Shown: piece by piece, positions 41,654 through 63,991 of the stretch | How the letters are laid out: each line of letters starts with the position of its first letter | Position numbering within the stretch: the first letter of the stretch is position 1 | NCBI GenBank assembly: GCA_035291905.1 | Contig: DATDRF010000297.1 | Coordinates: forward strand, 14 to 64,013 | Source of the DNA: Bacteroidota bacterium | Lineage (GTDB): Bacteria; Bacteroidota; Ignavibacteria; UBA10030 | Length of the DNA stretch: 64,000 bases | Direction: 5' to 3' | The notes under the pieces: generated by a model | Told to the model about the DNA's origin: nothing | The model's database searches: none | Seen by the model: the letters and a program-made list of their open reading frames with translations, nothing else | Translations under genes and position numbers: made by a program

Positions 41654-42732
41654 TCAACGCAAAGAAAGCGAGAATTGCGATTCCTGGGGACGAAGGAAGG
41701 ATTCGGTGGAAAGGCGAACAGGGGTTTCGTTCAAGCGATACTTTCGGCAACCTGCCTGAAAGAGATTCTCGATTGTATCGGCGATCGGGCCTTCGCCCTT
41801 CATTCGCTTTCCGAAGTCCGATTCGGAAAGCTTTCCCCCTCGGACGGACCGAATATGACTCACGACTTTGTTGAACTTCTCGGGGTATTCGCGCTTGAGC
41901 CACTCGAGGAAGAGATCCTTGAGTGCATAGGAAAGCCGCACCGTTGTTTGCCCCGCATGACGTGCGCCGCTTTCTGATGCCTGCCTGAGAATTTCTGGGA
42001 TCTCGCTTTCTGTCAGTCCGGGTATTATCGGTGCCACATTGACACCGACGGGAATCCCGTTCGCGGCAAGAATTTCCACTGTTTCCATGCGCTTTCGGGG
42101 AGCCGAAGCGCGCGGTTCCAGTTTTCTTGCCAGATCCTGGCGGAGCGTTGTGACGGTGATAATGACGAAGAGAAGATTGGTGGCGGCAAGTTCTTTGAGA
42201 ATATCGACGTCGCGCTGAACAAGGGCGTTCTTGGTAATGAGCGAGACCGGGTTTCGGAAGCGCAAGAATATTTCGAGGCAGCGGCGGGTGATCTTCAATG
42301 TCCGTTCCGCAGGCTGGTAGCAATCAGTATTGCCTGAAAAAACCACCGTCTGGGGTTGCCATGAAGGCTTGCTGAATTCAGCCGCAAGGAGCTCGGGTGC
42401 TTTGAGCTTCACCATGATCTTTGTCTCAAAATCGAGGCCGGAGGAGAAGCCAAGGTATTCATGTGAAGGGCGCGCGTAGCAAAGATGCAGCCGTGCTCAC
42501 AGCCTCGGTAGGGGTTGATGCTGTACGTGAAACCGATGTCGGGGCTGTCGTTTTTGGAGAGAATGGAAAGAGAGCGGTCGACATAGAAGCGCGTGGGGAC
42601 TTTTTGCCCGGGCTCGGGCAGCTCAAAGTACTCCGCCAGATCAGGAGGCGGCGATTCCACTTTGAGTGATTCAAAGCGGTTGGGAGGATTGAATCCCGCC
42701 CCGCGACCGATGAATGGGCGAGATTCACTCAT
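41654..42732 (-). pseudogene. Radical SAM 'DNA repair photolyase' (SplB-like, COG1533 family) gene disrupted by a 1-nt frameshift
   Basis: The N-terminal ORF 42409..42732 reaches ...YRGCEHGCIF and then goes out of frame. Re-inserting one T in the T-run near 42480 restores [39 protein letters not shown]..., which continues into ORF 41654..42415. The start overlaps the polB-like stop by 8 nt. Confidence 0.75.
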
Positions 42733-48846: not shown

Positions 48847-48867
48847 GAAAACTCCATCGGTTATGAG

Positions 48868-49035
48868 GATCAGAAGCCAGAGATCAGAGATCAGAAGTCA
48901 CTGATCAGAGGTCAGATGTCAGAGATCAGAGGTCAGAGGTCAGAGATCAGAGGTCAGATGTCAGAGATCAGAGATCAGAGGTCAAAGGCCAAATCAAAAA
49001 ATCAATAAATCAATGAATCATTAAATCAGAAATCC
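48868..49035. repeat. Heptanucleotide tandem repeat array, (A/G)TCAGAG x about 17, degenerating into (A)AATCA(N) units
   Basis: Strict 7-bp periodicity is readable directly: atcagag|atcagaa|gtcactg|atcagag|gtcagat|gtcagag|... The array is noncoding and fills the space between the hydrolase start (48846) and the stop of the upstream gene (49038). Confidence 0.9.
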
Positions 49036-49037
49036 GG

Positions 49038-49842: not shown

Positions 49843-51945
49843 TCAGTCAGGAATGTGGTTGAGCACAATTGAGGCTAACCGGCGGGAGTGGACAACGATA
49901 AACACGCTGCTGAGGACCATAGCAGCGGCGGCAAGGATCGGCTGAAGGAGGCCCGAAACCGCGAGTGCAATTCCCACTGCATTGTAGCCAAATGCCCAGA
50001 GAAGATTCCACCGAATCACACCGAGCGTCCGGCGGGCATAGCGAATCAGCCACGGAATCTTTTCCAAATGATCTCCCAGGATCGTGACGTCGGCGCTCTC
50101 TTTGGCGATGTCGGTTCCAGATCCGAGCGTGATCCCGACATCCGCAGCTGAAAGGGCCGGGGCGTCGTTGATTCCGTCACCCACCATCACAGTGACCCCC
50201 CCAAGCTTCAACTGATGAATAATTTCAAGTTTGTCCTGGGGCAGGAGTTTCCCGTATACATGCTCAATCGAGAGCGCCTCTGCAATGGACCGGGTGATCG
50301 TTCGGGAATCGCCCGAGAGGATATGTGTTTCAATCCCTTTATCCCTTAACTCCCCGATGGTCTCTTTCGCGTATCGCCTCAACGTATCATTGAAGATTAT
50401 CGATCCCTGCACCGTGCCGTCCCATCCTGCATACATGACCGTTGCCGACCGTTCGTCGCTTTGTTTCAGATTGTCGGGATTGACGTCAAAAAGCTCCGCA
50501 CTTCCCGCTTGCACCATCACCCATCGTCCTCGAATATTGACCTCACCTTTGATGCCGAGTCCCGGCAGGACAGAGACGTTTCGGACGTCGTACGCAGGTA
50601 CTTGATCGCTCTTTGCGCGCGCAGTAACGGCCCTTCCCAGCGGGTGCTCCGAATTCCGTTCGAGAGATGCCACGATACCGAGGAATTCCTTTTCCGGCAA
50701 TCGGGTGTGCAGCTCCCAGAGACGCGGCTCTCCTTTTGTGAGAGTCCCGGTTTTGTCGAACACAACATGTCTGCTGTCGGCGAGCTTCTCGAATATGGCC
50801 GATGAGCGGATAAGGAGTCCTTCTTCCGCCGCGCGGCCGAGTGCAATAGCACTTGCGAGCGGAGTCCCTATTCCCAATGCGCACGGACAGGCAACGACCA
50901 GAACGGTCAACGCATGCAGCAATGCCGTGTCCGCATTTGAGGCAGGCAGCCATCCGATGAACGTCAAAACAGAAAGAACCATGACCACCGGAATGAAAAT
51001 CCCCGCAATTCTGTCAACAGATTGTTGGATCGGAGATCGGGACCGTTGGGCCTCTTCCATGAGCCGGACAATATGAGCATGAACGGTTTCGGCGGCCGGA
51101 GCGGTCACCTGAGCCACGATCACCCCCTCCTGATTCATGGTCGCGGCATAAACCGAATCTCCGGGTCTTTTTGTGAGAGGCGTCGATTCACCCGTCAAAG
51201 TTGCCTCATCGACGCTCGTTGTCCCTTCGAGAACGATACCATCGAGCGGAATTCGTTCTCCGGCCAGAACCTTGATGTGGTCGCCCGGCTGAACATCCTT
51301 TGATCCGACAAACTGCTCATCCTTCCCGACGAGCTTTCTGACCCTATCGGGCTGGAGATCGATGAGCTTTCTGATTGCAGCCGATGTGCGGATCTTCGCG
51401 TTCGCCTCCAGGTAGCGCCCGGCGGTCACCAGGACGAGTGTCATGGTGGCAGTGTCAAAATAAATCGCATGGCCGCCGGAAAAAACCTGGTAAGTTGAGA
51501 AGACAAATGCGGCAAACGATCCGAGAGCAATGAGACTGTCCATCGAGAGCCGCCATGAACGGAATTCGCGTGCAGCGGCCTGCAGGTAGGGCCATCCTAC
51601 AATGAAGAGAACGGGAAGGGAAAGAACGAAAATCAGTTTCTCGATCCATGGGAGTGCTTCCGGCTCCATCCCGATCGCAATCCATTGCTGATCGTACAGG
51701 GCCCAGCTCAGGGCCATGACGTTCATGGAAAGAAACGCGGAAAATCCAAGCCGGGCGAGGAAGAGTCCGGCCGTTCCGGTCTCTCCCGGTTGCCCGAGCA
51801 CCGAATGCGTGAACGAACAACCGTAGCAGCAGAAATGGAGTTTTACATCATCCCGAATGGAAACAACGCCGCCGCGGCCGTACGGGAGGCCGCACTGGTC
51901 GCAGGTCTGGAGAGTCGTGTTCCTGGATTGCCGGGAGGGTGCCAT
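49843..51945 (-). CDS. Heavy-metal translocating P1B-type ATPase with N-terminal TRASH-like Cys motif
   Basis: TM CPC motif (ACPCALG). DKTGTLT phosphorylation site. GDGINDAP. N-terminal CDQC-X20-CCYGC (CX2C...CX3C). Confidence 0.9.
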   Translation of the reverse strand: MAPSRQSRNTTLQTCDQCGLPYGRGGVVSIRDDVKLHFCCYGCSFTHSVLGQPGETGTAGLFLARLGFSAFLSMNVMALSWALYDQQWIAIGMEPEALPWIEKLIFVLSLPVLFIVGWPYLQAAAREFRSWRLSMDSLIALGSFAAFVFSTYQVFSGGHAIYFDTATMTLVLVTAGRYLEANAKIRTSAAIRKLIDLQPDRVRKLVGKDEQFVGSKDVQPGDHIKVLAGERIPLDGIVLEGTTSVDEATLTGESTPLTKRPGDSVYAATMNQEGVIVAQVTAPAAETVHAHIVRLMEEAQRSRSPIQQSVDRIAGIFIPVVMVLSVLTFIGWLPASNADTALLHALTVLVVACPCALGIGTPLASAIALGRAAEEGLLIRSSAIFEKLADSRHVVFDKTGTLTKGEPRLWELHTRLPEKEFLGIVASLERNSEHPLGRAVTARAKSDQVPAYDVRNVSVLPGLGIKGEVNIRGRWVMVQAGSAELFDVNPDNLKQSDERSATVMYAGWDGTVQGSIIFNDTLRRYAKETIGELRDKGIETHILSGDSRTITRSIAEALSIEHVYGKLLPQDKLEIIHQLKLGGVTVMVGDGINDAPALSAADVGITLGSGTDIAKESADVTILGDHLEKIPWLIRYARRTLGVIRWNLLWAFGYNAVGIALAVSGLLQPILAAAAMVLSSVFIVVHSRRLASIVLNHIPD

Positions 51946-51957
51946 CCAAGCGGGGAA

Positions 51958-53211
51958 TTAGTGACGCTGAGATTGTGAGGGAACGGAAGGAGGAACCAAC
52001 GGTACGACTCGTGCGTACCACAGCCAGCTAAGCCCGATCAGACCCAGGAATCCAAAGGTGACTCCGAGTTCCGCGATGCCGAGGGGCACGCCGTGTTGGC
52101 TCCAGACCGATGGTGCAATCTCAATGAACTGATACATCCAATTTGCTGCAAGGATGATCGACGCGATGACCAACAGGGCACGAGGTTTCTCTTTGATGCT
52201 TCTGCTCAAAAAGACCGCTATAGGGAAGAAGTAAAGAAGCAGAATAACCGTCCACTGGAAGACGGGCCACGGGGAATGATCGAACCGAAGAATGAGCCGT
52301 TCGATCTCCTCGCCGAGATTCCCGTACCAGATGGTGATGTACTGGCCCCAATAGAATCCCCCGGCAAGCATGCACAGCCCCATGAGAAGACGGCTGACGT
52401 CATAGAACTGCTTCGTCGATACATGCTCCTGGAGGTTGAAATACTTTCGGGCAAGGATTGCCACGATGATCGTGGCGGCGACGCCCGTATCGAATGCGTG
52501 AACCATGTACAGCCAGCCATAGAGACTGCTGTACCAGTGCGGATCGAGAGACATGACCACATCGAACCCGACAAACGTGTAGACCACGCCATATGAAATA
52601 AGAACAACCGGGACAAACGTTGAGAGCTTCGAGTTTCTCTTTTCCACCTCTGCATCATATCCCCGCCAGTCGCTTGTTAAACGATCGACCAATCCCGACA
52701 CCCGCGCCTTGCCCAGTTCCTTCAGAAGCCCCAGGTCGGGACGGATAGAGACAGCAACGTACCAGAGGCTCAGAGCCGACAATACAACGTAATAAGCCGT
52801 CACACGCGCAAAGAAGAAGGGCTCGTTCAGCCATGCCGCCTTCGCTTCGATCGGTTCCGTAATCCATGGCCAGAGAAATGTCCGGCCGAAATAGGTGACA
52901 AGGAAGAGAAGGATCGTGAGCGGAATGAAAAGGACAAATCCCTCCGCCACTTTTCGTATCGTTTCACCCCAGCGTCCGTTCGTCAATCTGTAGGCCGCAG
53001 AAAAGACTATCCCCGCTTGTGCAAGCCCGCTCCAGAAACAGAAGTTGATGAGATACGAGATCCAGATTCTCTCGGTGGCGTAGCCGAGCAATCCGGCGAC
53101 GACCGCGGCAACGCCGATCATGACGGCAATCCAGAGGCCCATGACAAGGGATCGGGGATTCTCTGCGGGAGGAGCGACAACGGACATTTGGGCAGGGGGC
53201 TGCGTTTTCAT
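51958..53211 (-). CDS. actF: Alternative complex III subunit ActF-like (NrfD/PsrC-family membrane protein)
   Basis: Ten-TM NrfD-like protein placed last in the act gene order. Confidence 0.55.
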   Translation of the reverse strand: MKTQPPAQMSVVAPPAENPRSLVMGLWIAVMIGVAAVVAGLLGYATERIWISYLINFCFWSGLAQAGIVFSAAYRLTNGRWGETIRKVAEGFVLFIPLTILLFLVTYFGRTFLWPWITEPIEAKAAWLNEPFFFARVTAYYVVLSALSLWYVAVSIRPDLGLLKELGKARVSGLVDRLTSDWRGYDAEVEKRNSKLSTFVPVVLISYGVVYTFVGFDVVMSLDPHWYSSLYGWLYMVHAFDTGVAATIIVAILARKYFNLQEHVSTKQFYDVSRLLMGLCMLAGGFYWGQYITIWYGNLGEEIERLILRFDHSPWPVFQWTVILLLYFFPIAVFLSRSIKEKPRALLVIASIILAANWMYQFIEIAPSVWSQHGVPLGIAELGVTFGFLGLIGLSWLWYARVVPLVPPSVPSQSQRH

Positions 53212-53221
53212 CGATGAGATT

Positions 53222-53782
53222 TCATTTCTGGAGCGTTCGAAGATGGTTCACGACGAGCCATCGTTCATGGGACTTCAGGGCCTCGGAATATGAAGGCATG
53301 ATCAAACGGCCATGGCGGACCACATAGTAAATATATCCGTCGGGAACGCGACGATATTTTTGGCTTGTCAGATCCGGCGGAACCTGAAACTTGGCGGCGA
53401 CAAGTCCATCTCCTCTTGCTCCCAGGCCGTGACACGGAGAGCAGTAGGTTTCAAAGAGAAACTTGGCAGAATCGGCATTCAAAGCAGTGAGCCGGACGGG
53501 ATTCACAAGCCGTGTTGCGGAAACAGAGTCGCGTATCGGCAGTTCGTAGCCGCTCACCGGAACGGTCCCCGCAACCGGTGGCATCGGGTCTTCCTGCTTT
53601 TTGAATGAGGGCTGCATGTGCATGTCGCTGCGGTAGCGGTAGCCCCCGATTTCGCCATTGTCTGGCCCACACGACCACAGCAGCGGCAACAGAAAAAGCG
53701 ATCCCAGCAAAGCACATAGATTTCGTGCAGGGGAGCGGAGGTGCAAAGGAGCAGAGGAGATATGCAATCTGGTTGAACTCAT
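53222..53782 (-). CDS. actE: Monoheme cytochrome c (ActE-like)
   Basis: Single CxxCH (CSPCHG). Signal or lipoprotein N-terminus. Position between actD and actF. Confidence 0.6.
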   Translation of the reverse strand: MSSTRLHISSAPLHLRSPARNLCALLGSLFLLPLLWSCGPDNGEIGGYRYRSDMHMQPSFKKQEDPMPPVAGTVPVSGYELPIRDSVSATRLVNPVRLTALNADSAKFLFETYCSPCHGLGARGDGLVAAKFQVPPDLTSQKYRRVPDGYIYYVVRHGRLIMPSYSEALKSHERWLVVNHLRTLQK

Positions 53783-54177
53783 ATCCTATGATCTCTGAGT
53801 AGCAGCCACGGTTCGGGGCGAATAATCATCATCACGATTTTCCCAAGGATCTGATTGTACTTCTTTTTTTGTGCGACATGTCTTTCTGCGTCGAGGTACC
53901 CACAACGAGCAGCAAAATCAAGCCATGTCTGAGTTTCTGCTGCTTCAGTTTCAGCATCATTGAGTTTGCTCAAGAAGGCAGCTTCATATCGACGTTTTCT
54001 CCAAGCCTCTGTCAGATTTGCACATACCGACCTCGAGGATCGGCGGATCTGGTCTGTCAACGAATACGTTTCCTCTTTCGGAAAACGCCTTGTCATTTCA
54101 AAGATCTCCATTGCAGCCTCAAAGGCAATCTGATAAACTTCGAGCTGCTCATGGCTTTGAATATGTTTCCTTTCCAT
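53779..54177 (-). CDS. Four-helix-bundle protein (TIGR02436 / '23S rRNA intervening sequence protein' family) inserted in the ACIII operon
   Basis: Family signature QIRRSSRSVCANLTEAWRKR, with about 130 aa of helical protein. The leader it shares with the second copy is described in the findings. Confidence 0.8.
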   Translation of the reverse strand: MERKHIQSHEQLEVYQIAFEAAMEIFEMTRRFPKEETYSLTDQIRRSSRSVCANLTEAWRKRRYEAAFLSKLNDAETEAAETQTWLDFAARCGYLDAERHVAQKKKYNQILGKIVMMIIRPEPWLLLRDHRI

Positions 54178-54217
54178 TTTGTCCCCCCAAAAGTTAAGTT
54201 TTCTTTCCCCCTTCTCC

Positions 54218-54754
54218 TCAGCGCCTCTGCTCCTCTTCTCTGGAGTCCTCCTTGATCTCCACCGCTCCCACCCTTTTCATCTTCTTTCCCCAATCCTTCA
54301 ATATTTCCTCGCTTCCAAAAACCTGAATCCCATAATGATCGCTCGAGAGACGCTCGTCATATGCGGCTGCCAGACGCAACCGAGGAAGCCGTGCATTGAT
54401 GAGAAAGCCGATCATCGTTGCGATGGAGCCGAAGAGAATGGTGAGAATGTAGGCGATAACGCCGAACGGCGGAATGGAGATTAACGGCTTCCCGCCGACG
54501 ATCAAAGGATAGTTCAGCACGGAGCCGATTGTCAGTGCCCAGCCGGTGCAGAATCCGAGTATCGCGCCGGTCAACGTGAACACTCTCACGGGGCTCTTTG
54601 GCCGATGGAGAGCATACTCGATGTCGTGGTGAGGGACTGGAGCGTACACGAGGAAATTCTCGAACTTTGCTCCTTTAAGCTCGCTGATTCCCTTTAAAAG
54701 AAGATCCATCGCTGGAAAGACAGCAAGGATATTTGGGCCGGTGTGCTTGGACAT
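54218..54754 (-). CDS. actD: Alternative complex III subunit ActD-like (DUF3341)
   Basis: N-terminal soluble region plus two TM helices. Position after actC. Confidence 0.65.
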   Translation of the reverse strand: MSKHTGPNILAVFPAMDLLLKGISELKGAKFENFLVYAPVPHHDIEYALHRPKSPVRVFTLTGAILGFCTGWALTIGSVLNYPLIVGGKPLISIPPFGVIAYILTILFGSIATMIGFLINARLPRLRLAAAYDERLSSDHYGIQVFGSEEILKDWGKKMKRVGAVEIKEDSREEEQRR

Positions 54755-54764
54755 TTGGAGAACC

Positions 54765-54822
54765 GAGAAGCTAGAAGTTAGAATTTAGAATCAAGAATAC
54801 AGAATCCAGAAGTCAGAAACCA
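54765..54822. repeat. 7-bp periodic repeat NNNAGAA x7 in the actC-actD intergenic region
   Basis: gctagaa|gttagaa|tttagaa|tcaagaa|tacagaa|tccagaa|gtcagaa. Confidence 0.85.
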
Positions 54823-54859
54823 ATACCCCCCGATGCACCGTTGCGCCGTCGCCCCGATG

Positions 54860-56179
54860 CTATCCCTTCCCGCTCTTCGGCGGCTCAAGTTGCTCCTTCA
54901 CTTCCCACATTGAGACGACGGGAAGCGTTTTCGAAAAGATCGCGAACAAGAAAAAGAACCATGAGAAACTTCCAACCACAATCCCCATTTCCGAGAACGT
55001 CAACTCCGGAAGTCCCCACATGAAGGGGATGTACTCGTGAGCAAGAGACGTTGTGATAATGACGAATCGCTCAAAGAACATTCCGATGGTCACTGCAACC
55101 GAAACGAATACCAGGAGCGGAATGCTTCGGCGAAATCGCTTTACCCAGAACAGCTGCGGGATGACGAGGTTGCAGACGAACAGTGACCAGAATGCCCACC
55201 AGTAATCGCCGAACGCTCGATACGACATGATTGCCTGCTCCCACGGGTTGTGGCTGTACCAGGCGACAAAGACCTCAATCAGGTAGGCAAACCCGACGAT
55301 ACTTGCGGTAAACAACAAGAACTTTGCAAGGCTTTCCAGATGATGATCGGTGATATAGGCCTGCAGCCGGAACGCATTGCGCATCGGTATGAGAAGAAGG
55401 ATGACCATAGCGAGGCCGGAATGAATAGCTCCGGCGACAAAATACGGCGCAAAGATCGTGCTGTGCCATCCGGGCACAAGGCTCATGGCGAAATCCCACG
55501 AAACAATGCTATGAACCGAAATGACCAGCGGCGTTGCAAGGGCAGCCAGAAACACATATGCCGCGGTATAATGACGCCATTGGTTATCAGTACCCTGCCA
55601 TCCTTGGGCGATAAAACCGTAGAGTTTTTTTCTCCAGCCTCGTGCTTTGTCGCGAATGATTGCCACGTCGGGTACCATCCCTGTAAGAAAGAAAATTGAA
55701 CTTGCCGTCAAGTAGGTCGAGATGGCGAAGACGTCCCAAATGAGGGGGGACCGGAAATTCGGGAACAGATCACCCATTTGCGGATAGGGGAGGGTCCAAT
55801 AGAAAACCCAGACGCGGCCGAGATGAATAAGAGGGAAGAGGCCGGCGGTGGCGAGGCCAAACACCGTTACGGCTTCCGCGCTGCGATACACCGACGAACG
55901 CCATTTCACGCGGAAAAGAAACAGAATTGCCGAAATCAGTGTCCCGGAGTGTGCAATACCGACCCAGAAGACAAAGGTTGTAATATAGAGATACCATCCG
56001 ACGGGATTATTCTTCCCCGCCACTCCGATGCCGGTCATGATCTGATGCAGCCACGAGCCCGCCCCCCATGCAACTCCCAATCCCAGGACCCCCACGAGCA
56101 CGTAATACCACTTCTTGGGCCTGTTCAGCGTCTGGGTCAGATCGAGATCTGTTTTGGTATATGACAGTTCGTAAGGCAT
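54860..56179 (-). CDS. actC: Alternative complex III subunit ActC (NrfD-family quinol-interacting membrane subunit)
   Basis: NrfD/PsrC-like 10-TM protein (MPYELSYTKTDLDLTQTLN...). Confidence 0.75.
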   Translation of the reverse strand: MPYELSYTKTDLDLTQTLNRPKKWYYVLVGVLGLGVAWGAGSWLHQIMTGIGVAGKNNPVGWYLYITTFVFWVGIAHSGTLISAILFLFRVKWRSSVYRSAEAVTVFGLATAGLFPLIHLGRVWVFYWTLPYPQMGDLFPNFRSPLIWDVFAISTYLTASSIFFLTGMVPDVAIIRDKARGWRKKLYGFIAQGWQGTDNQWRHYTAAYVFLAALATPLVISVHSIVSWDFAMSLVPGWHSTIFAPYFVAGAIHSGLAMVILLLIPMRNAFRLQAYITDHHLESLAKFLLFTASIVGFAYLIEVFVAWYSHNPWEQAIMSYRAFGDYWWAFWSLFVCNLVIPQLFWVKRFRRSIPLLVFVSVAVTIGMFFERFVIITTSLAHEYIPFMWGLPELTFSEMGIVVGSFSWFFFLFAIFSKTLPVVSMWEVKEQLEPPKSGKG

Positions 56180-56185
56180 GGTCGT

Positions 56186-57910
56186 TCAGGGTTTTCTGAG
56201 CGGGGTTACGTCCTGATGCTTCTCGGCCGGCTTATCGTGCAGCTCGGCGCCAATGAGATGACGTGCCCGTGTGAGGGCCTCATCAATGCTGCCGCAGACA
56301 TTCTCTTCGCCGATGCGATCGATCAACCCGGATGAATTCAACAAATAGAGCGGCTGTTTGTGAATTCCGGAGATCACAAGGACAGTCCCTTCTTTCCTTG
56401 TTCGCTCGTAAAGGTCTTCCAGCGCCTGAAGCCCCGAGGCATCGACGGCGAGAAGATTTCTTGTCCGAAGGATAAGGACTTTTGCCGGCTTTTCAATCAA
56501 CCGCAGCGAATCCTTGAATTGATCCACGGCCGCATAGAAAAGCGAGCCGTAAATCTCAAAAACCTCGACTCCATCAGGAACGACACGTTTGGCAATTGCA
56601 TTTGCATCATCTTTGTCTTCTTCAACCTCTTCTATGTCCTTTGTGATCAATTGTGTTTGTGTCACACCCGCCATCTGGCGCAGGAAGAGGAAAGCGGCGA
56701 GGACCACACCGACCTCGATTGCGATGGTAAGGTCAACCAACAGTGTCAGAAGGAACGTTGTCAAGAGGATGGCGATATCGCTTCGTGGACCGTGGAAAGT
56801 CTTGACGAACGCGTGCCACTCGCTCATGTTGTACGCGACGATAATGAGAATGGCTGCAAGGGTCGTCATGGGGATATACTCTGCCCATGACCCGAAAAAC
56901 ACCATCAGGAGAATAATGGTCAATGAATGCACGAGCCCGGCAACGGGCGTTCGTCCCCCGTTCTTGATGTTCGTGGCTGTGCGTGCGATTGCTCCGGTGG
57001 CTGGAATTCCCCCAAAAAGCGACGAGAGGATATTCCCCACGCCCTGGGCTACGAGCTCCATGTTCGAGCGGTGGCGCGTTCCGAGCATACCGTCGGCAAC
57101 AACCGCCGAGAGAAGCGATTCAATACCCGCCAGCAGGGCAATGGTGACAGCAGGTGCAAACATGGTCTTGATTAGCTCCCAGTCGGCCTCCGGAAGCGAA
57201 GGTGACGGAAGAGAGTTGGGAACGCTGCCAAACCGGCTGCCGATCGTTGCAACAGGAATCTGAAAAACCTGTACAGCCACAGTCGCAAGAATGATGGCCA
57301 CGAGGGGGGCGGGTATCTTGTGCGTAATTCGCGGCCATAGCAGAAGAATCAGAAGAGAACCCAAACCCGTGGCGACCGTGGGAAGATGAGTTGTCAGAAT
57401 ACTTTCTCCGTAGCTGATCCATTTTTCTACAAAATCCGCGGAGAGCGATGTAATGTCGAGACCAAGAAAATCCTTCACCTGCGACGAAAGGATGATCAGC
57501 GCAATCCCGCTCGTAAAACCGACCGTCACAGGGTAGGGGATGAGGCGCAGCAGCACGCCCATGCGCGCAATTCCCATCGCAACCAGCAAAACCCCGGCGA
57601 TCAACGTCGCGATGACAAGCCCCTGATACCCGTACTGTTGGACAACGCTGTAGATAACGACGATGAACGCGCCGGTCGGTCCGGAGATCTGCACTCGGCT
57701 CCCGCCGAGTACGGCAACAGCGATTCCCGCAATGATTGCCGTGTAGAGCCCCTGCTCCGGCTTCACTCCGGATGCTATGGCAAACGCGATGGCCAGCGGC
57801 AGGGCGACGATTCCCACAATGACGCCCGCAACAGCGTCACGCGAGAATTGCTTGGCTGAATACCCCTCCTTGAGCAGGCTTACAAACTTCGGTTCGAGCC
57901 TTGACGGCAT
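56186..57910 (-). CDS. SulP family anion (sulfate) permease with C-terminal STAS domain
   Basis: SulP TM core with a C-terminal STAS domain. Tightly packed between actC and the DUF72 gene. Confidence 0.9.
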   Translation of the reverse strand: MPSRLEPKFVSLLKEGYSAKQFSRDAVAGVIVGIVALPLAIAFAIASGVKPEQGLYTAIIAGIAVAVLGGSRVQISGPTGAFIVVIYSVVQQYGYQGLVIATLIAGVLLVAMGIARMGVLLRLIPYPVTVGFTSGIALIILSSQVKDFLGLDITSLSADFVEKWISYGESILTTHLPTVATGLGSLLILLLWPRITHKIPAPLVAIILATVAVQVFQIPVATIGSRFGSVPNSLPSPSLPEADWELIKTMFAPAVTIALLAGIESLLSAVVADGMLGTRHRSNMELVAQGVGNILSSLFGGIPATGAIARTATNIKNGGRTPVAGLVHSLTIILLMVFFGSWAEYIPMTTLAAILIIVAYNMSEWHAFVKTFHGPRSDIAILLTTFLLTLLVDLTIAIEVGVVLAAFLFLRQMAGVTQTQLITKDIEEVEEDKDDANAIAKRVVPDGVEVFEIYGSLFYAAVDQFKDSLRLIEKPAKVLILRTRNLLAVDASGLQALEDLYERTRKEGTVLVISGIHKQPLYLLNSSGLIDRIGEENVCGSIDEALTRARHLIGAELHDKPAEKHQDVTPLRKP

Positions 57911-57913
57911 TCG

Positions 57914-58834
57914 TTATTCCCTGATATTATCCAACCGACGGATGGTTAACGGTAACTCGTCTTCCTGTCCAACAATCGACAGGTTCGGAATCTTCTTCAG
58001 CTGCGGGGAGACTTCTGCAAGACTGCCCGGAACCGTGATCTTCTTCTTCCTGTCGACTAAGTGTTTTAGCTGAAATCCGTTTACCGCCGAATGTGCATTC
58101 GGATCGTTGTGAAAGACAACGAAGGTCTTCCTCACTGAGCGTTGCACGGATTCAATCCGTTTGACAAAATCTTCAAGCTCTTCCGGTGAATAATTGTAAT
58201 GATACCGCTCCTGGACTCCGCCCCTGTCCCACGAGGCGCTGTTTCTCCCCATCAGCCGGAAGTACGCCACGTCATCCCATGCCTCGTTCGTCATCGGCAT
58301 ATGGTTCTTGATTGCGGGAAGATCGACATTGATCAGGTGAAGGTTCTGATCCCGCAGGAACTGAAACGCCTCCGCATGGTTCCATGAATCGTGCCGCAGC
58401 TCGATGAACATGACGAATGATCCAAATGTTACACCGAGTTTCTTCAGGTACTCTTCGTTTGGCTTTGTGCGCTGGAAGGAATGAGGGAACTGAAGAACCA
58501 GTCCTCCCATCACTCCTGCCTTGAGCAGCGGTTCAAGCATGGCGTGAACCGTTTTTGCATCTTCGGCCGTCCCGTTTCTCTTGTGCGTAAAAGCCTGAAA
58601 GAGCTTCGCCGTGAAAACGAAATTCTGGTTGCCCGAAACGTCCGCTATCCAACGGCGGATCTGATCCGGGCTCAAAGCCAGCGTGTAGAACGTGGCGTTG
58701 ACCTCCACCATGTCAAAGAACCGGCTGTAGTACTGGAGCTTCCGGAATCCTTTTCCTGCGTCGGCAGGATAGAACGTTCCCTCAAACGAGGGCAGCATCC
58801 AACCTCCCATCCCGATCAAAATTTCCGGCTTCAT
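57914..58834 (-). CDS. DUF72 (UPF0759) family protein
   Basis: IGMGGW...FYP...LQYYSRFFDMVEVNATFY pattern typical of DUF72. Confidence 0.75.
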   Translation of the reverse strand: MKPEILIGMGGWMLPSFEGTFYPADAGKGFRKLQYYSRFFDMVEVNATFYTLALSPDQIRRWIADVSGNQNFVFTAKLFQAFTHKRNGTAEDAKTVHAMLEPLLKAGVMGGLVLQFPHSFQRTKPNEEYLKKLGVTFGSFVMFIELRHDSWNHAEAFQFLRDQNLHLINVDLPAIKNHMPMTNEAWDDVAYFRLMGRNSASWDRGGVQERYHYNYSPEELEDFVKRIESVQRSVRKTFVVFHNDPNAHSAVNGFQLKHLVDRKKKITVPGSLAEVSPQLKKIPNLSIVGQEDELPLTIRRLDNIRE

Positions 58835-58840
58835 ACGATC

Positions 58841-61783
58841 CTAGGATCGAATCTCTTTGAGGTACACAACCGCGGGCTGTGTATTCAGTTCCTCCAGCAC
58901 GCGATATCCACGAACCTTTTGGGCGTCGCGGATCCTGTTAACCTGACTCTGAGGATCTTTTAAGTCGCCGAAGACGATTGCCTGTGCAGGGCATGACTGC
59001 TGGCATGCAGTCGTGATCTCTCCGTCGCGAACCGGCCTTCCTTCAGCTTTGGCATTCGCCTTTGCCTCGACAACACGTTGAACGCAGAAGGTGCATTTCT
59101 CCATCACACCTTTCGTTCGAACAGTTACGTCCGGGTTCAATTGCCAATTCAGCGGTTCTGGAAATTCGTAGTCGAACCAGTTGAACCTGCGAACCTTGTA
59201 TGGACAGTTGTTGGCGCAATATCTCGTCCCGATGCATCGATTGTAGACCTGAGCGTTCAAACCCTCGGGGGAGTGGTACGATGCGTAGACGGGGCAGACA
59301 GGTTCACAAGGGGCGTTATCACATTGCTGACACATCATCGGAAGGAATTCTGCCTTGGGTGAATACGGTTCCGACGGATTAGAGGGGGGATCATCGAAGT
59401 ACCTCTCGACGCGGATCCAGGTAAGCTCACGCCCGATTTCCACCTGATGTTTTCCGACAACAGGGACGTTGTTCTCCGCATAGCACGCAGTCACGCATGC
59501 GCTGCATCCCGTACACTTGTCGAGATCGATTGCCATTCCCCAACGATGGTCCGGATGCTCGTGCGCCGGATAGAGGGAAGGAGATTCTTTTTCCTCATTC
59601 TCTTTGCCGGCAAGCTCCCTTGTTTGCCGAAGCAGCTCCTCGACGGTGACAACCTGAACGATGTTTCTTCCATGGAGATAATCGCTTCCGGCCACATCGG
59701 CAAGAGGAACACTCGCATCCCGTTTGACGATTCGAACCTGTGCACCCGACCATTTCAAGGACCCCGAGCGCCCTGCAGGCAGGGAATGCAGCAAGCTGAT
59801 GACGTTTGCTCCCTGGCCTTTTGCGTATCGGCCGTATTCGGTGTGGCCCTGTCCGATGGGAACAGCCACCGCACCTGGTCGAACACCGTGATAGACATAC
59901 ACGGGGAGTTCAATGACACCATGCTCACTTGTGAGCTGTACGATGTCCCCGCGCTTTACATTGAGCTTTTCCGCATCACTGGGATGAATCTCCACCCAGT
60001 TCTCCCAGGTTATCTGAGTCATCGGATCGGGCAGTTCCTGGAGCCACGGTCTGTTCGCTCCGCGACCATCATAAAGAGCGAGTGAGGGGTAGGTAATGAG
60101 TGAGAAATCACCGGCCGGAGGTTGTGGCAAAGAGAACGAGAACGATCGCGTCACGGCACGGATCGGCGAAGATGCCTTTCGACCGGCATCAAAAACTCCT
60201 CCGTTTGCCAGTGCCTCTGTCCACCAGAGGTCGAAGTCCTTACCTCCTCCGGATTGACGGTGAACCGCACGCCATCTCGTTTTGAGATACTCATAAAAGG
60301 GCTGACGAGCGGAGGAGAAGAGGGCCTTCTTCAAGATCTTCTCCTTGAGGCCGACGACGATATCCCCGAACATGCGTGTTGTCGGAAACACCGGCTGCAT
60401 GACCGGTTGCATAAGTCCCCGCCCATGATCTCCCCAGCTCTCAAGCGGCGTATGAACGGGGAGAACCATCGTGGCCTGCGTTGTCGTCTCATCCATGTAA
60501 CTTGAGAATGCAACCGACAGCGGCACCTTGCTCATTGCATGCAGAACGTTCAATCCGGGAGGGGCGGAGAAGACAGGATTCACGTCGGTAAAGAAGAGGG
60601 CGTTGATTTCGCCCTGTTCTATTGAAAGAATAAAGCGGGCGAAGTCGGCATAGGAATTTGTGTCGGACAGTTGTTCGAGGGAGTCGAAAAGAACCGTCTT
60701 ACCGATATTTCCGAGCGAGTAGTTCAGCAGATTCACTGCAAGACAGGTCTGAAGCTCCCCGTCACCGCCAACGGGAGTCCCACCGGCGACGATGAGGCTT
60801 GGTCTTGAGGCAAGCAATGATTCGGCGAGATCTTCTAACACCTCTTGCCGGACGCCGGTGACTTCAGAAACCCTTGCCGGAGAGTATCCACGGGTTGACG
60901 GCAAGAGTTCCGCGGCTTCGGACCGCGGGATGGAAGCATTTCCGCTTTCGAGAACAAGATTGAGGATACCAAGTGCGAGGACGTACTCCGTTCCGGGCAC
61001 CGGGGCAATCCACTGGTCGGTGTTGGCCGCCGTCATTGAGAGTCGGGGGCCGACATAGACGGACCGTCGAACGGACTTGCCGTTGAACGCACGCGCTGTT
61101 GTGTACTCTCGTGTCTGTTTCAGTGGGGAAAGCCAGGTCTCGAGGAAATCGGCTCCGAACGAGACGATCATCTTCGCTGCGGCAAAATCATGAGAGGGGA
61201 TAACGGGCCGTCCGAATATCTGCCGATTTGCCTCTTTCACAGCATCGTACGAAAACGGCTCATACTTCAATCGCCGCCTTGAACCGACGGCCGCGAGTAA
61301 CTCACCCACGAGGGCATCAGCTGATCCGTTCATCGACCCGGTCAGCCAGGCGATGCTGTTGCCTTTTCCACTCTTTGCCAGTTTCTTGATCTCTGCAACG
61401 ATTGTCTCTTCGGCCTGCTGCCATGAAACCTGCTCCCACGAACCGTCAGGTCGTTTGCGAAGAGGGTGTTGAATCCGATCCGGATTGTAGAGACCGTGCA
61501 GGGATGCCTGACCTCGTGCACAGAGGGTTCCCTCGTTGACGGGATGAAGCGGGTTCCCTTCAACCTTGACGGCCCTTCCTTCTCTCACGCGTACGCGGAT
61601 TCCGCAGCCCGCGGGACATTCGCGGCATACGCTTGCGTACCACACTGCCTTTCCCGGAATGATCTCTTCATGGGGAATGACGTACGGTATCAACGATTGC
61701 GGCTTCTTCGGGGTGCATCCCGGAAGTGCCGTCGCAACGCTTGCGCCGATGATTTTGAGGAAATCTCTACGTTGGAGGTCCAT
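58841..61783 (-). CDS. actB: Alternative complex III subunit ActB (molybdopterin-oxidoreductase-like domain fused to a 4Fe-4S ferredoxin domain; Tat signal)
   Basis: Tat motif RRDFLK. MopB-like N-terminal 700 aa. C-terminal Cys clusters (CTGCSACVTAC, CQQCDNAPCEPVCPV, CIGTRYCANNCP, CTFC). 980 aa. Confidence 0.85.
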   Translation of the reverse strand: MDLQRRDFLKIIGASVATALPGCTPKKPQSLIPYVIPHEEIIPGKAVWYASVCRECPAGCGIRVRVREGRAVKVEGNPLHPVNEGTLCARGQASLHGLYNPDRIQHPLRKRPDGSWEQVSWQQAEETIVAEIKKLAKSGKGNSIAWLTGSMNGSADALVGELLAAVGSRRRLKYEPFSYDAVKEANRQIFGRPVIPSHDFAAAKMIVSFGADFLETWLSPLKQTREYTTARAFNGKSVRRSVYVGPRLSMTAANTDQWIAPVPGTEYVLALGILNLVLESGNASIPRSEAAELLPSTRGYSPARVSEVTGVRQEVLEDLAESLLASRPSLIVAGGTPVGGDGELQTCLAVNLLNYSLGNIGKTVLFDSLEQLSDTNSYADFARFILSIEQGEINALFFTDVNPVFSAPPGLNVLHAMSKVPLSVAFSSYMDETTTQATMVLPVHTPLESWGDHGRGLMQPVMQPVFPTTRMFGDIVVGLKEKILKKALFSSARQPFYEYLKTRWRAVHRQSGGGKDFDLWWTEALANGGVFDAGRKASSPIRAVTRSFSFSLPQPPAGDFSLITYPSLALYDGRGANRPWLQELPDPMTQITWENWVEIHPSDAEKLNVKRGDIVQLTSEHGVIELPVYVYHGVRPGAVAVPIGQGHTEYGRYAKGQGANVISLLHSLPAGRSGSLKWSGAQVRIVKRDASVPLADVAGSDYLHGRNIVQVVTVEELLRQTRELAGKENEEKESPSLYPAHEHPDHRWGMAIDLDKCTGCSACVTACYAENNVPVVGKHQVEIGRELTWIRVERYFDDPPSNPSEPYSPKAEFLPMMCQQCDNAPCEPVCPVYASYHSPEGLNAQVYNRCIGTRYCANNCPYKVRRFNWFDYEFPEPLNWQLNPDVTVRTKGVMEKCTFCVQRVVEAKANAKAEGRPVRDGEITTACQQSCPAQAIVFGDLKDPQSQVNRIRDAQKVRGYRVLEELNTQPAVVYLKEIRS

Positions 61784-61827
61784 GAAAAACAGTTGTCGGT
61801 GATCAGTTATCAGTAAACAGTTGAAGC

Positions 61828-62343
61828 TCAGCGTTTCTTCGCGGACTTCAGAATTGACTCAATTTGCTTCAAATGGTTCACGTCGTGGCCGGCGTAAAGT
61901 TCGGTCATGCGCGTAACGGTTTCTTTACCGCGTTCAACATGCATGCCAAAGCATTCCCACTGCTCCTTCGTCAACGATTTCAGAAAAGCCACATTGTTTT
62001 CGCGGAGCGTCGTGAAAAGATCAAGTGCGAGCTTTGCGTTTTTGCGAAGGTATCCTGCATTTTGCTGCCAAATATTCTGGTCGTATGCCTGAATAGGTGT
62101 GCCGTTCGCACCAACGACGAGCCTGAGCCGATAAGCCATGACAATCTCACCTTCGGCCAAATGAGCAAGGATTTGCACAATGGACCATTTTCCGGAATCC
62201 TCCACCTTGGAGAGGGCAGAGGGCGGTTTTCCTTTTATCAGCCGTGCAATGGTCTTTGGCGTGGATTCAAGGACTTTCAGGTGGTTCTGGCCCTGGACGT
62301 AAGAGGTGATGCGGGCGCTGTACTGTTGCGGAGTTTCTTCCAC
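61828..62343 (-). CDS. DinB_2 / YfiT-like four-helix-bundle metalloprotein family member
   Basis: 171 aa. His-containing helices (ILAHLAEGE, YAGHDVNHL) typical of the DinB_2 superfamily. Inserted between actA and actB. Confidence 0.5.
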   Translation of the reverse strand: MEETPQQYSARITSYVQGQNHLKVLESTPKTIARLIKGKPPSALSKVEDSGKWSIVQILAHLAEGEIVMAYRLRLVVGANGTPIQAYDQNIWQQNAGYLRKNAKLALDLFTTLRENNVAFLKSLTKEQWECFGMHVERGKETVTRMTELYAGHDVNHLKQIESILKSAKKR

Positions 62344-62360
62344 CGGTCACCTTGGTTAAG

Positions 62361-62409
62361 GAGTTAGGAGCTAGCTAGAACCTAGAATCTAGAATTTAGA
62401 ATCTAGAAT
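62361..62409. repeat. 7-bp periodic repeat (CTAGAAT-type, about 7 units) at the 3' end of the second four-helix-bundle gene
   Basis: gttagga|gctagct|agaacct|agaatct|agaattt|agaatct|agaatgg. Confidence 0.85.
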
Positions 62410-62769
62410 GGCTCGAGAGTAAGAACGCAATAGTTTGCTTACTTCCGTGAGAGAGTCCATGAGAGCTGATGGATCTCCGTATTTTAGGTCGCGACTGAGT
62501 ATCAAATAATAGAGAGATTCATCGCTTGAACCCTCGCTGATATTCATGTATCGAACCTTATCAGCAGGGCCGCGTTTTCGAAATCCCTCAGCAATGTTGG
62601 CAGCGATTGAAACTGCCGCCCGCCGAAGCTGCGAACTGAGGCCGAACATTTCGTGCTTCGGGAAGCTCTTCGTGTACTTATAGACCCCTAGAACAAAGCT
62701 ATGAGCCTTCTGCCAAACGATGAGATCCTCAAACCTCTGTGCGGGACTCCTTTTCATTTTTCCCCCCAA
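62389..62769 (-). CDS. Four-helix-bundle protein (TIGR02436 family), second copy, inserted between actA and the dinB-like gene
   Basis: Family motif QLRRAAVSIAANIAEGFRKR. Leader CTTTTGGGGGGA-AAAATG is shared with the copy at 53779..54177. Confidence 0.8.
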   Translation of the reverse strand: MGGKMKRSPAQRFEDLIVWQKAHSFVLGVYKYTKSFPKHEMFGLSSQLRRAAVSIAANIAEGFRKRGPADKVRYMNISEGSSDESLYYLILSRDLKYGDPSALMDSLTEVSKLLRSYSRAILDSKF

Positions 62770-62785
62770 AAGATAGTTTGTTGAA

Positions 62786-62826
62786 AGAATTCTAGCTACT
62801 AGTTTCTAACTCCTCTGTTCTGCTTC
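62786..62826. repeat. 7-bp periodic TTCTNNN repeat, an inverted counterpart of the 62361..62409 repeat, flanking the other side of the four-helix-bundle gene
   Basis: gaattct|agctact|agtttct|aactcct|ctgttct|gcttcta. The reverse complement contains GAGTTAGAA...CTAGTAGCTAGAA, resembling the left-flank GAGTTAGGAGCTAGCTAGAA. Confidence 0.7.
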
Positions 62827-63347
62827 TACCGATGACACGTATAGCAATCAATACTCGCCTTGTTTTCCCGATGGCAATCTACGCAAAACGTCATATTGTT
62901 CAACCCTACGAACGGTTTCACCTCTGACATCGACGCGACGTCACCGTGGCATTTTGCGCAATCGATACCTTTGGCGATATGGGGAGCGTGATTGAAGAAC
63001 ACAAAATCGGCAACGCGGTTCACTTTCATCCAACGGATCGGCTGACGGGATTCCCACGCCTGCCGGATCTTGATCACTTCCGGTTTCGTTGCGGCCACGA
63101 GCTGGTGGCAACCCATGCAGGCCTGGACCGAAGGGACGTAGGCGTTGGCCCCACGCCGCGCTCCGCTGTGGCAATACTGACAGTTGATCTGATACGTACC
63201 CGCGTGGATCGCATGGCTGAATGCAATCGGCTGACGAGGGCCTGTCTCCTGACGTTCACAGCCCGCAAGCGTGATTGCCCCAACAATGAGGAGAAAGGTC
63301 AGCCCATACGCAATGCGAATTGACGTTCCCATGCCTGTGATTCTCAT
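62826..63347 (-). CDS. actA: Alternative complex III subunit ActA (pentaheme cytochrome c)
   Basis: Five CxxCH motifs (CQYCHSG, CMGCHQ, CAKCHGD, CVDCHRE, CYTCHR). Signal-anchor start probably MRITGMGTS at about 63347. Confidence 0.8.
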   Translation of the reverse strand: MRITGMGTSIRIAYGLTFLLIVGAITLAGCERQETGPRQPIAFSHAIHAGTYQINCQYCHSGARRGANAYVPSVQACMGCHQLVAATKPEVIKIRQAWESRQPIRWMKVNRVADFVFFNHAPHIAKGIDCAKCHGDVASMSEVKPFVGLNNMTFCVDCHRENKASIDCYTCHR

Positions 63348-63991
63348 TTCGCTCTTAACGCGACAAGCTCTGCAGAATTCCACGGTGTCCGCACCCCATG
63401 CTGGGAACGCAAGGCAGCTACATCCTCCGGTTTGGCCGGGGGTTCGTTGTTTCCCCATGTCGACCGAATGTGACTCACCACGGCTGCAATCTCTTCATCG
63501 CTGAGTTTATCATGGAAGGGAGGCATTTTGTTGTTGAACGAAGCCCCATTGACCGCTATAGGTCCTTCAAGCCCGTAGAGAACAACGCGAATCGGAGTCG
63601 TGACATCGCGCGTCACCCACTCTGATCCGACAAGCGGAGGATACTGTCCGGCAACCCCTTGCCCGTTTGCCTGATGACATGTTTGACACACACCGATAAA
63701 GATCTGATCACCCTTGACGACCCTGGCCGCCGGGGTCGCGGTTCCGACAGACGGCTGTTCGACCTCGTGCGCCACGGTGCTCCACGATCCTCCGTAACGG
63801 CCCAAATAGTACCCCATTGCGAAGAGGAGGAGCACGCTGATGGTCCATACCCACCACGGTGGCGGCTCAAAGCCCTCTTCCGGTTCCAGCTGCTCACGCG
63901 AAACGATGCGGTGATGGATCTCGTTCACATGAACCGAGTCGGAATCGCGGAATTCTTCGGGAGATTGAGGTTTTGGGTGTTCCTTAGACAT
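63344..63991 (-). CDS. Membrane-anchored monoheme class I cytochrome c
   Basis: One TM helix (WWVWTISVLLLFAMGYYL) followed by CQTCH and a distal Met region. Confidence 0.6.
   Translation of the reverse strand: MSKEHPKPQSPEEFRDSDSVHVNEIHHRIVSREQLEPEEGFEPPPWWVWTISVLLLFAMGYYLGRYGGSWSTVAHEVEQPSVGTATPAARVVKGDQIFIGVCQTCHQANGQGVAGQYPPLVGSEWVTRDVTTPIRVVLYGLEGPIAVNGASFNNKMPPFHDKLSDEEIAAVVSHIRSTWGNNEPPAKPEDVAALRSQHGVRTPWNSAELVALRAK

Follow-up and report, generated by a model that had tools for sequence, protein, structure and literature searches.

The act genes of alternative complex III (ACIII) form a cluster that, in Rhodothermus marinus and Flavobacterium johnsoniae, often adjoins an oxygen-reductase cluster (PMC5928083). 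Intervening sequences (IVSs) interrupt the 23S rRNA of Coxiella burnetii, Leptospira and Xanthomonas; the Coxiella element is 428 nt long, contains an S23p open reading frame (ORF) and ends in a 28-bp terminal stem, at which RNase III cleaves (PMC4990558). Intergenic simple-sequence repeats with a heptameric unit have been described in Xanthomonas and, as short tandemly repeated repetitive (STRR) sequences, in Nostoc and cyanobacteria (PMC4692102). The locus analysed here, an act operon with five other genes between its act genes, can be compared with all three systems. It lies in a 64-kb stretch of DNA (the window, meaning the whole stretch of 64,000 nt) from an organism described as an uncultured Bacteroidota/Ignavibacteria-like bacterium. 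The analysis indicates that the operon is probably made of two interleaved gene sets, in the order actA, DinB_2, actB, DUF72-SulP, actC, together with selfish, IVS-like cassettes that carry four-helix-bundle (4HB) genes of family PF05635. The DinB_2, DUF72 and SulP genes are best explained as evolving independently of ACIII and riding on the transcription of the operon, rather than as encoding ACIII subunits.

On the minus strand the gene order is cytochrome c, actA, 4HB, DinB_2, actB, DUF72, SulP, actC, actD, 4HB, actE, actF and Cu-ATPase, and every long ORF between 49.8 and 64.0 kb belongs to this strand, in one chain. Its parts are the following.

63344-63991, minus strand: c-type cytochrome gene upstream of actA, weakly CcoP-like (Pfam Cytochrom_C, 1.3e-12)
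62826-63332, minus strand: actA, pentahaem cytochrome c subunit (five CxxCH motifs; Cytochrome_C7 and class III Pfam matches)
62344-62825, minus strand: 4HB1 cassette, with a 5' heptamer arm, a leader (...CTTTTGGGGGGAAAAATG), a PF05635 ORF at 62389-62757 and a 3' inverted arm (ATTCTAG repeats)
61828-62343, minus strand: DinB_2 family gene, YfiT-like (PF12867, 1.6e-16)
58841-61783, minus strand: actB, molybdopterin-like part (B1) fused to a 4Fe-4S part (B2) (Pfam Molybdopterin, Molybdop_Fe4S4, Molydop_binding and Fer4)
57914-58834, minus strand: DUF72 (YecE-like) gene (PF01904, 1.4e-50)
56186-57910, minus strand: SulP-family anion transporter gene with a STAS domain (PF00916, 3.4e-90; STAS, PF01740, 5e-13)
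54860-56179, minus strand: actC, NrfD-like quinol-binding membrane subunit (PF03916, 2.3e-24)
54218-54754, minus strand: actD (PF11821 ActD, 4.1e-36)
53700-54240, minus strand: 4HB2 cassette, with a PF05635 ORF at 53779-54177 (3.8e-30) and the leader AACTTTTGGGGGGACAAAATG
53222-53782, minus strand: actE, monohaem cytochrome c (Cytochrome_CBB3, 4.5e-09; single CSPCH motif)
51958-53211, minus strand: actF, cofactor-less actC paralogue (tblastn to actC, 2e-19)
49843-51945, minus strand: copper/heavy-metal P1B-type ATPase gene, CcoI/FixI-like by context (TIGR01525, 564 bits; TIGR01511, 508 bits; both above their cut-offs)

This order, the strand and the gene identities agree with an earlier note on this DNA; every assignment is backed by profiles, that of actF by its paralogy to actC and its position, and profile searches uphold the Act assignments throughout. 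The act ORFs are all full length, intact and length-conserved, and the junctions of the minus strand measure, in order from actA to actF, 56, 45, 44, 6, 3, 6, 105, 40, -4 and 10 bp. Six contigs have an identical gene order, and so do 10 contigs in a second view (loci are designated by L numbers below); the ENA, JGI and Logan samples behind them differ, and at least 10 independent metagenome assemblies contain the layout. As in described ACIII clusters, ActA to ActF are all encoded in canonical order with the expected domains, next to a terminal oxidase (putatively of the cbb3 type); in contrast to them, the cluster of the window is not contiguous, five non-act genes occupying act-act junctions, and its oxidase genes lie upstream rather than downstream (PMC5928083).

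How far the window departs from other act loci can be seen from a set of 80 loci of other species, in which the nearest relatives are Bacteroidota and Ignavibacteriales metagenome-assembled genomes. These reference loci are contiguous almost everywhere, with median gaps of 37-119 bp (n = 80). The full A-B-C-D-E-F order was found in 61 of them, and most of the others are cut by contig ends. A gap of gene size between act genes occurs only in L007, L011/L012 and L013 (three to four of the 80), and none of these loci has more than one. The contention that ACIII operons are normally contiguous thus holds, and the window, where the canonical order is kept with five other genes interposed, does not follow the rule. 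Nor are the extra genes universal accessories of act loci, an outcome that the earlier note had named as refuting its reading: DUF72, SulP and the PF05635 ORF are absent from all 80 loci and DinB_2 is present in two.

The actB/actC spacer of other loci shows some variation of its own. In the closest relative from the genome collection it measures 496 bp (L007:3058-3553) and contains a 78-aa ORF (3186-3422) without a family match; the spacer also resembles the C-terminus of 4HB2 weakly over 30 aa (E 0.002, from a tiny database) and is possibly a decayed cassette. No remnants of DUF72, SulP or DinB_2 were found in the spacers of L007 and L013. In two loci whose ActC is about 71% identical (L009:2868-3004 and L010:7308-7451), the actB/actC spacer consists of two different 7-8-nt tandem arrays without a gene, for which less structure is predicted than for shuffled sequence.

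The individual subunits add detail to these assignments. The actA start is most likely at 63332 (168 aa, as given by gene callers); the position listed for it, 63458, places it too far upstream. ActB comprises residues 42-687 (B1) and 748-976 (B2) according to Pfam and NCBIfam, gives QrcB/QrcC-like NCBIfam matches and aligns over its full length with ActB of the 80 loci; its N-terminus, MDLQRRDFLK, reads by eye as a twin-arginine-like signal. ActC is 97% identical to that of L087 and 84-87% identical to those of L007 and L008, and with ActF, by the PF03916 match and the paralogy listed above, it forms a pair of NrfD/PsrC-like membrane subunits. ActF has no Pfam match and occurs at the actF position in 75 of the 80 reference loci, namely those extending that far. 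The cluster extends further than the earlier note gave it. Upstream, the c-type cytochrome scores 35 bits against TIGR00782 (ccoP), below the cut-off of 180, and beyond it, past the window end, contigs of the same organism carry ccoN, ccoO and a third 4HB gene (4HB0); COX1 and FixO matches were found there in L001-L005 and FixS in L087. After actF comes the P1B-type ATPase gene, which follows actF in L008, L010-L012 and L087 as well. The locus is best explained as a functional cbb3-oxidase/ACIII/Cu-ATPase gene cluster with passenger genes in its spacers.

Three of the passengers, DinB_2, DUF72 and SulP (the trio), belong together. The DinB_2 protein scores 65.6 bits against the YfiT bacillithiol transferase model NF009807, under its cut-off of 160, so that only superfamily membership can be assigned. 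For DUF72, no assigned function was found in the part of the literature that was covered by the search. The SulP protein exceeds the cut-off of TIGR00815 (404 against 380), contains both the sulfate_transp membrane domain and the C-terminal STAS domain, and reaches 521 bits with the DauA C4-dicarboxylate equivalog NF008660, below the cut-off of 614. The GC content at third codon positions (GC3) of the three genes is 0.59-0.65 (DUF72 0.65), which matches the act genes (0.58-0.66) and is host-like. Their ratios of nonsynonymous to synonymous substitution rates (dN/dS) are 0.06-0.11 (DinB_2 0.11, DUF72 0.10), approximate values because dS is saturated (>1). The three genes are best explained as old residents under purifying selection.

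Sister species hold parts of this layout in different states of preservation. DUF72 homologues 77-82% identical to that of the window lie at the same actB/actC junction in L087, L088, L089 and L100, and DinB_2 lies at the same actA/actB junction in L087, L088, L011 and L012. In L087 and L100 (ActC 97% identical) DinB_2 and DUF72 are in place and SulP is reduced to its first 27 and last 43 codons; L088 (ActC 95%) has kept DinB_2 and DUF72 and has neither SulP nor a 4HB gene. In L090 (L090:1-3060) a C-terminal remnant of DinB_2 is followed by intact DUF72 and SulP (86%), after which 42 codons from the start of actC run directly into the final 36 codons of the ATPase gene. Deletion has removed actB here as well as the genes from actC through to the Cu-ATPase gene; short in-frame remnants are left next to an intact DUF72-SulP pair. 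The spacer between DinB_2 and DUF72 in L090 is an array of GCTGANN heptamers. Because L087 lost SulP and kept ACIII, and L090 lost act genes and kept DUF72-SulP, an obligate link to ACIII is unlikely: by these gene contents, the trio appears dispensable for ACIII and ACIII for the trio. The functional link that the earlier note had offered as one explanation is therefore not favoured, and its question whether SulP and DUF72 occur at the act loci of relatives receives a divided answer: DUF72 does in these four sister loci, intact SulP is missing from L087 and L088, and the 80 reference loci have neither.

In related Bacteroidota the same three genes also exist as a contiguous set. In L091, L095-97, L105 and L106 the order is helicase-VTT-CNNM-DinB_2-DUF72-SulP-DUF4190-GH43, and these orthologues are 49-56% (DinB_2), 61-64% (DUF72) and 69-74% (SulP) identical to the window genes. 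DinB_2 is contiguous with DUF72 in L093 too, and SulP is missing in L093, L094, L103 and L104. Around the contiguous trio of L091, L095 and L105 no act or cco gene was found within 6-10 kb. CNNM and DUF72 are directly adjacent in about a dozen loci at about 50% DUF72 identity. In L105, orf247 and a cyclase gene are found 8 kb downstream of DUF72, in synteny with the window, and homologues of the window genes from 45266 down to 37260 are conserved in order and strand in L107 and L113. This conservation of the downstream neighbourhood indicates that DUF72 is at its ancestral position, that it did not move far, and that the cco and act genes are interleaved with the trio. A contiguous trio acting as a plain donor that jumped into the act operon was also considered, and this explanation is weakened. 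Two further observations concern these loci. The DinB_2/DUF72 spacer of L091 is an ORF-less hairpin of inverted arrays (-46 kcal/mol, z -4.6), and in the window a 768-aa ORF (42725-45031, minus strand), whose same-species counterpart has a family-B DNA polymerase domain (PF00136), is 61-71% conserved in L107, L113 and L141, where its neighbourhood is also the same.

The favoured order of the rearrangements starts from an act operon. An act operon with DinB_2 already between actA and actB would have arrived beside DUF72(-SulP), and a single swap of adjacent blocks, for instance by tandem duplication and loss, would then have yielded the mosaic. Later act deletions in particular lineages, of the kind seen in L090, could leave a bare DinB_2-DUF72-SulP trio, and the contiguous trio may be such a remainder after the loss of ACIII. 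The reverse order of events, in which DinB_2, DUF72 and SulP came together beside CNNM and were later split by act genes, is possible though doubtful, and it concerns the sequence of events only. The deep CNNM-DUF72 adjacency and the wide occurrence of the contiguous trio speak for it. However, the act-embedded DinB_2 copies of L011 and L012, which stand at the actA/actB junction without DUF72 or SulP, are basal in a midpoint-rooted DinB_2 tree, outside both the window clade and the contiguous-trio clade. With the trio formed first, these copies would have to be either survivors of an older mosaic that lost DUF72-SulP or the result of a second, independent insertion that hit precisely this act junction, and L090 demonstrates that act deletion does generate a DinB_2-DUF72-SulP arrangement.

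Less likely is that the trio encodes lineage-specific accessory factors of ACIII or cbb3, kept in the operon by selection for co-expression. Such roles might involve cofactor or thiol chemistry, or the uptake of anions (C4-dicarboxylates) that feed the quinone pool. The very tight junctions (3-6 bp), the purifying selection on all three genes, the position of DinB_2 in the distant L011/L012, the recurrence of DUF72 at one junction in three sister species and the closeness of SulP to DauA-type dicarboxylate transporters are consistent with this explanation. Against it, 78-80 of the 80 other act loci do not have the genes, that of the close relative L008 among them; L007 has no DUF72 or SulP between actB and actC (its actA side is off the contig); SulP has been lost beside a retained ACIII in L087, and DUF72-SulP have outlived the deletion of actB and of actC to the ATPase gene in L090; and the trio is conserved contiguously in L091, L095 and L105, with no act or cco gene in flanks of 6-10 kb.

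It is very unlikely that unrelated foreign genes entered a hot-spot operon recently in five independent events. Five extra genes in one operon are certainly exceptional, a different insert occupies the actB/actC spacer of L007, and the 4HB cassettes do behave in this way. However, the host-like GC3 of DinB_2, DUF72 and SulP, their presence in sister species with a saturated dS between orthologues, their orthology to a contiguous set and their location in the conserved neighbourhood of DUF72 all argue against this history for the trio. The suggestion of repeated insertions in the earlier note fits the two 4HB genes, which are of a separate kind. Its description of the inserts as five unrelated genes is right only in part, since the trio is orthologous to one contiguous set and interleaved at the ancestral DUF72 neighbourhood. 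That five extra genes do occupy act spacers is confirmed by the contigs from different samples. Although the sequences derive from metagenome assemblies, a chimeric assembly is next to inconceivable, because the order recurs in 16 contig views (ENA, JGI, Logan) from different samples, which excludes assembly error, and sister species carry parts of the layout.

The 4HB genes are of another nature. The 4HB1 ORF matches PF05635 at 1.6e-33, the 4HB genes of the window exceed the cut-off of TIGR02436, and 4HB2 matches the structures PDB 2GSC (pentameric XCC0516, 1.2e-10) and 2RLD (3e-08). All three 4HB ORFs are preceded by a shared leader, (A)ACT(T)TTGGGGGGA..ATG, and are flanked by inverted arrays of degenerate heptamers, AGAAnnn/nnnTTCT at 4HB1, GCATCGG/CCGTCGC at 4HB0 and GGAGnAG/CTCCTCT at 4HB2. 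In minimum-free-energy folds these flanking arms close each ORF in a long stem; the predicted stems lie at about 62344-62388/62770-62825 for 4HB1 and 53700-53778/54178-54240 for 4HB2. The arm duplex reached z -2.4 for 4HB1 (4 of 300 shuffles were as good) and z -3.1 for 4HB2 (2 of 300). When arm was tested against arm, six cassettes of the clade gave z -1.2 to -3.9, compared with -1.1 to +1.9 for 11 other genes of the operon. GC3 is low (4HB1 0.50, 4HB2 0.44, against 0.58-0.66 in the act genes), and the 4HB0 ORF is constrained (dN/dS 0.04, L001 against L087). The cassettes are confined to spacers, lie in sense orientation and leave the act ORFs unbroken. The arms of 4HB2 reach into both neighbouring genes, overlapping actD at its 3' end and actE at its 5' end. 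The N-terminus of ActE (53710-53782, about 24 codons; the alignment with L087 begins at residue 25) and the C-terminal tail of ActD (54218-54240) cannot be aligned with the sister species and coincide with these arms. It looks as if the insertion of 4HB2 had remodelled the ends of both genes.

The closest known counterpart of these cassettes is the 23S rRNA IVS (PMC4990558). Both carry a PF05635 ORF with the fold of PDB 2GSC, measure roughly 0.45-0.55 kb, have complementary termini that form a long stem, occur sporadically among close relatives and have a GC content below that of the host. They differ in that the cassettes sit in the spacers of a protein-coding operon and not in helices 9, 25 or 45, that their arms are degenerate heptamer arrays whose stem cleavage is predicted here, and that a conserved leader directly precedes an ORF under purifying selection. 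With the heptameric repeats of Xanthomonas and Nostoc (PMC4692102) the arrays share tandem 7-nt intergenic units that also occur within operons, are sometimes inverted and vary in copy number; the phylum and the unit sequences are different, and the arrays of the window bracket PF05635 ORFs. The terms S23, 'intervening' and 'four helix' do not occur in that paper, and the literature search found no paper in which PF05635 genes are tied to heptamer arrays or to the spacers of operons. Avd of diversity-generating retroelements is a distantly related four-helix bundle, and its models PF22296 and NF033474 match 4HB2 weakly. An identity as Avd was rejected for the 4HB genes (NF033474 21 and 31.6 bits, cut-off 80); no reverse-transcriptase Pfam match was found in the called genes within 10 kb, a scan that did not extend to template or variable repeats.

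The cassettes vary between close relatives. L087 has a truncated 4HB1 and lacks 4HB2, and L088 has no 4HB1; in the window species 4HB2 is fixed (16 of 16 contigs). At the 4HB0 site, between ccoO and the cytochrome c gene, the ORFs of L001 (L001:1638-2132) and L002 (L002:1663-2139) are 61% identical in amino acids, the flanking genes being about 98-100% identical; the leader is partly identical, and the arm sequences differ yet both pair. Of the two copies, one is L087-like and one is similar to the window's 4HB2. These differences between strains look like cassette replacement.

Outside the clade, the same architecture of inverted heptamer arrays around a PF05635 ORF was found in the unrelated high-GC loci L156 and L162 (z -7.2 in L162). 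A scan of viral contigs (IMG/VR) for relatives of the 4HB genes gave 10 loci, eight of them distinct. Clear inverted arrays are present in L182-L185, L187 and L188 (z -1.9 to -5.4); the truncated L186 shows just its upstream arm, and L189 is partial. In the phage-classified L180/L181:2994-4409, two PF05635-like ORFs lie about 1 kb apart, the first without flanking heptamer arrays, and L182 has an 11/12 match to a sigma-70 promoter ending 6 nt before the ATG. These loci raise the tentative idea that PF05635 genes in general are the cargo of widespread, undescribed small mobile cassettes with inverted heptamer-array arms that reside in transcribed spacers, which at present is a speculative extension; the sample behind it is small, since the viral-contig scan gave only 10 loci. 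In the two unrelated high-GC metagenome contigs the 4HB cassette stands directly upstream of a DUF72 gene (L156:3461-4868, L162:433-2027; DUF72 33-35% identical to that of the window), and this pairing of the same families as in the window may be coincidence.

Heptamer arrays are also present at the locus without a 4HB gene between them.

61784-61827, minus strand: DinB_2/actB spacer with ACTGATA-type heptamers (period 7 in Tandem Repeats Finder, TRF)
54755-54859, minus strand: actC/actD spacer with two arrays, the first of GCATCGG type and the second of TTCTNNN-type heptamers (lag-7 scan, TRF)
48847-49037, minus strand: heptamer (TCTGAYC, about 17 copies) and octamer array after orf247 (TRF score 134-164; lag-7 scan)

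Within the 64-kb window, arrays of period 7 occur only at the act locus, and heptamer copy number differs between strains. The DinB_2/actB spacer is conserved in L087 and L088, variable in length and predicted to be unstructured, and the actC/actD spacer shows a 7-bp length polymorphism between strains. Not all arrays are stems, because those in a single orientation (DinB_2/actB, actC/actD, L009 and L010) do not fold. The 191-bp spacer at 48847-49037 consists almost entirely of tandem repeats, with AAATCAAT-type octamers (plus strand) following the minus-strand heptamers; no other array in the window is as long, and nothing complementary to it lies nearby.

The intact act ORFs, the sense orientation of the spacer insertions, the three junctions of 3-6 bp and the terminator-free junctions together suggest one long transcript in which the passengers are probably co-transcribed with the act genes. 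Minus-strand terminator-like sites all fall inside coding-gene coordinates and none in a junction. A scan of the operon for terminators and promoters found no excess, with a sigma-70 consensus that is probably inappropriate for this phylum, and Rfam and tRNA scans of the window found nothing (no rRNA or other Rfam family). Upon read-through of the operon, the arms of a cassette would pair in a long stem that RNase III, by analogy with the Coxiella element, would probably cut, freeing the cassette RNA and splitting the polycistronic mRNA. The cassettes are presumably mobile. Their conserved leader resembles what we take to be the -7 promoter element of Bacteroidota, TAnnTTTG, and if this resemblance is correct a cassette could be self-transcribed.

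Several points weigh against the account of two interleaved gene sets with mobile cassettes in a single transcript. The direction of the trio history hangs on a single-protein tree (170 aa, midpoint-rooted), and it would be affected by an ACIII elsewhere in the contiguous-trio genomes, whose flanks were seen over 6-10 kb. The presence of DinB_2 at one and the same actA/actB junction in the distant L011/L012 could reflect selection keeping that position. Two of the six arm tests are individually non-significant, and the z values for folding of whole cassettes are modest (-0.3 to -2.6). For 4HB2 neither a target-site duplication nor an exact insertion boundary could be defined, the alignment of the window with L087 being too diverged. 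Finally, promoters may exist inside upstream genes or cassettes.

ACIII itself is known; what is new is a mosaic operon and IVS-like cassettes with heptamer arms in mRNA spacers. For the biology of respiration, the outcome is largely reassuring: nothing about the intact complex is out of the ordinary, and the extra genes are best seen as passengers rather than new subunits. The locus documents well how two gene sets can become interleaved within a single transcription unit in nature and then be pruned differently among sister species, which bears on how operons arise and are dismantled. If the cassettes prove as general as tentatively proposed, the ORF-bearing IVSs of 23S rRNA would be merely their rRNA-resident subset, and cassettes in operons would act as RNase III-dependent points of mRNA segmentation. 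The heptamer arrays, in the form of RNA or DNA, may be what the pentameric 4HB protein recognises, and in that case the unexplained excess of heptamer repeats in some bacterial genomes would be linked to PF05635 genes. In conclusion, the locus connects the S23p-type proteins, whose function and spread have been open questions since the 1990s, with unexplained intergenic heptamer repeats, and makes both questions testable.

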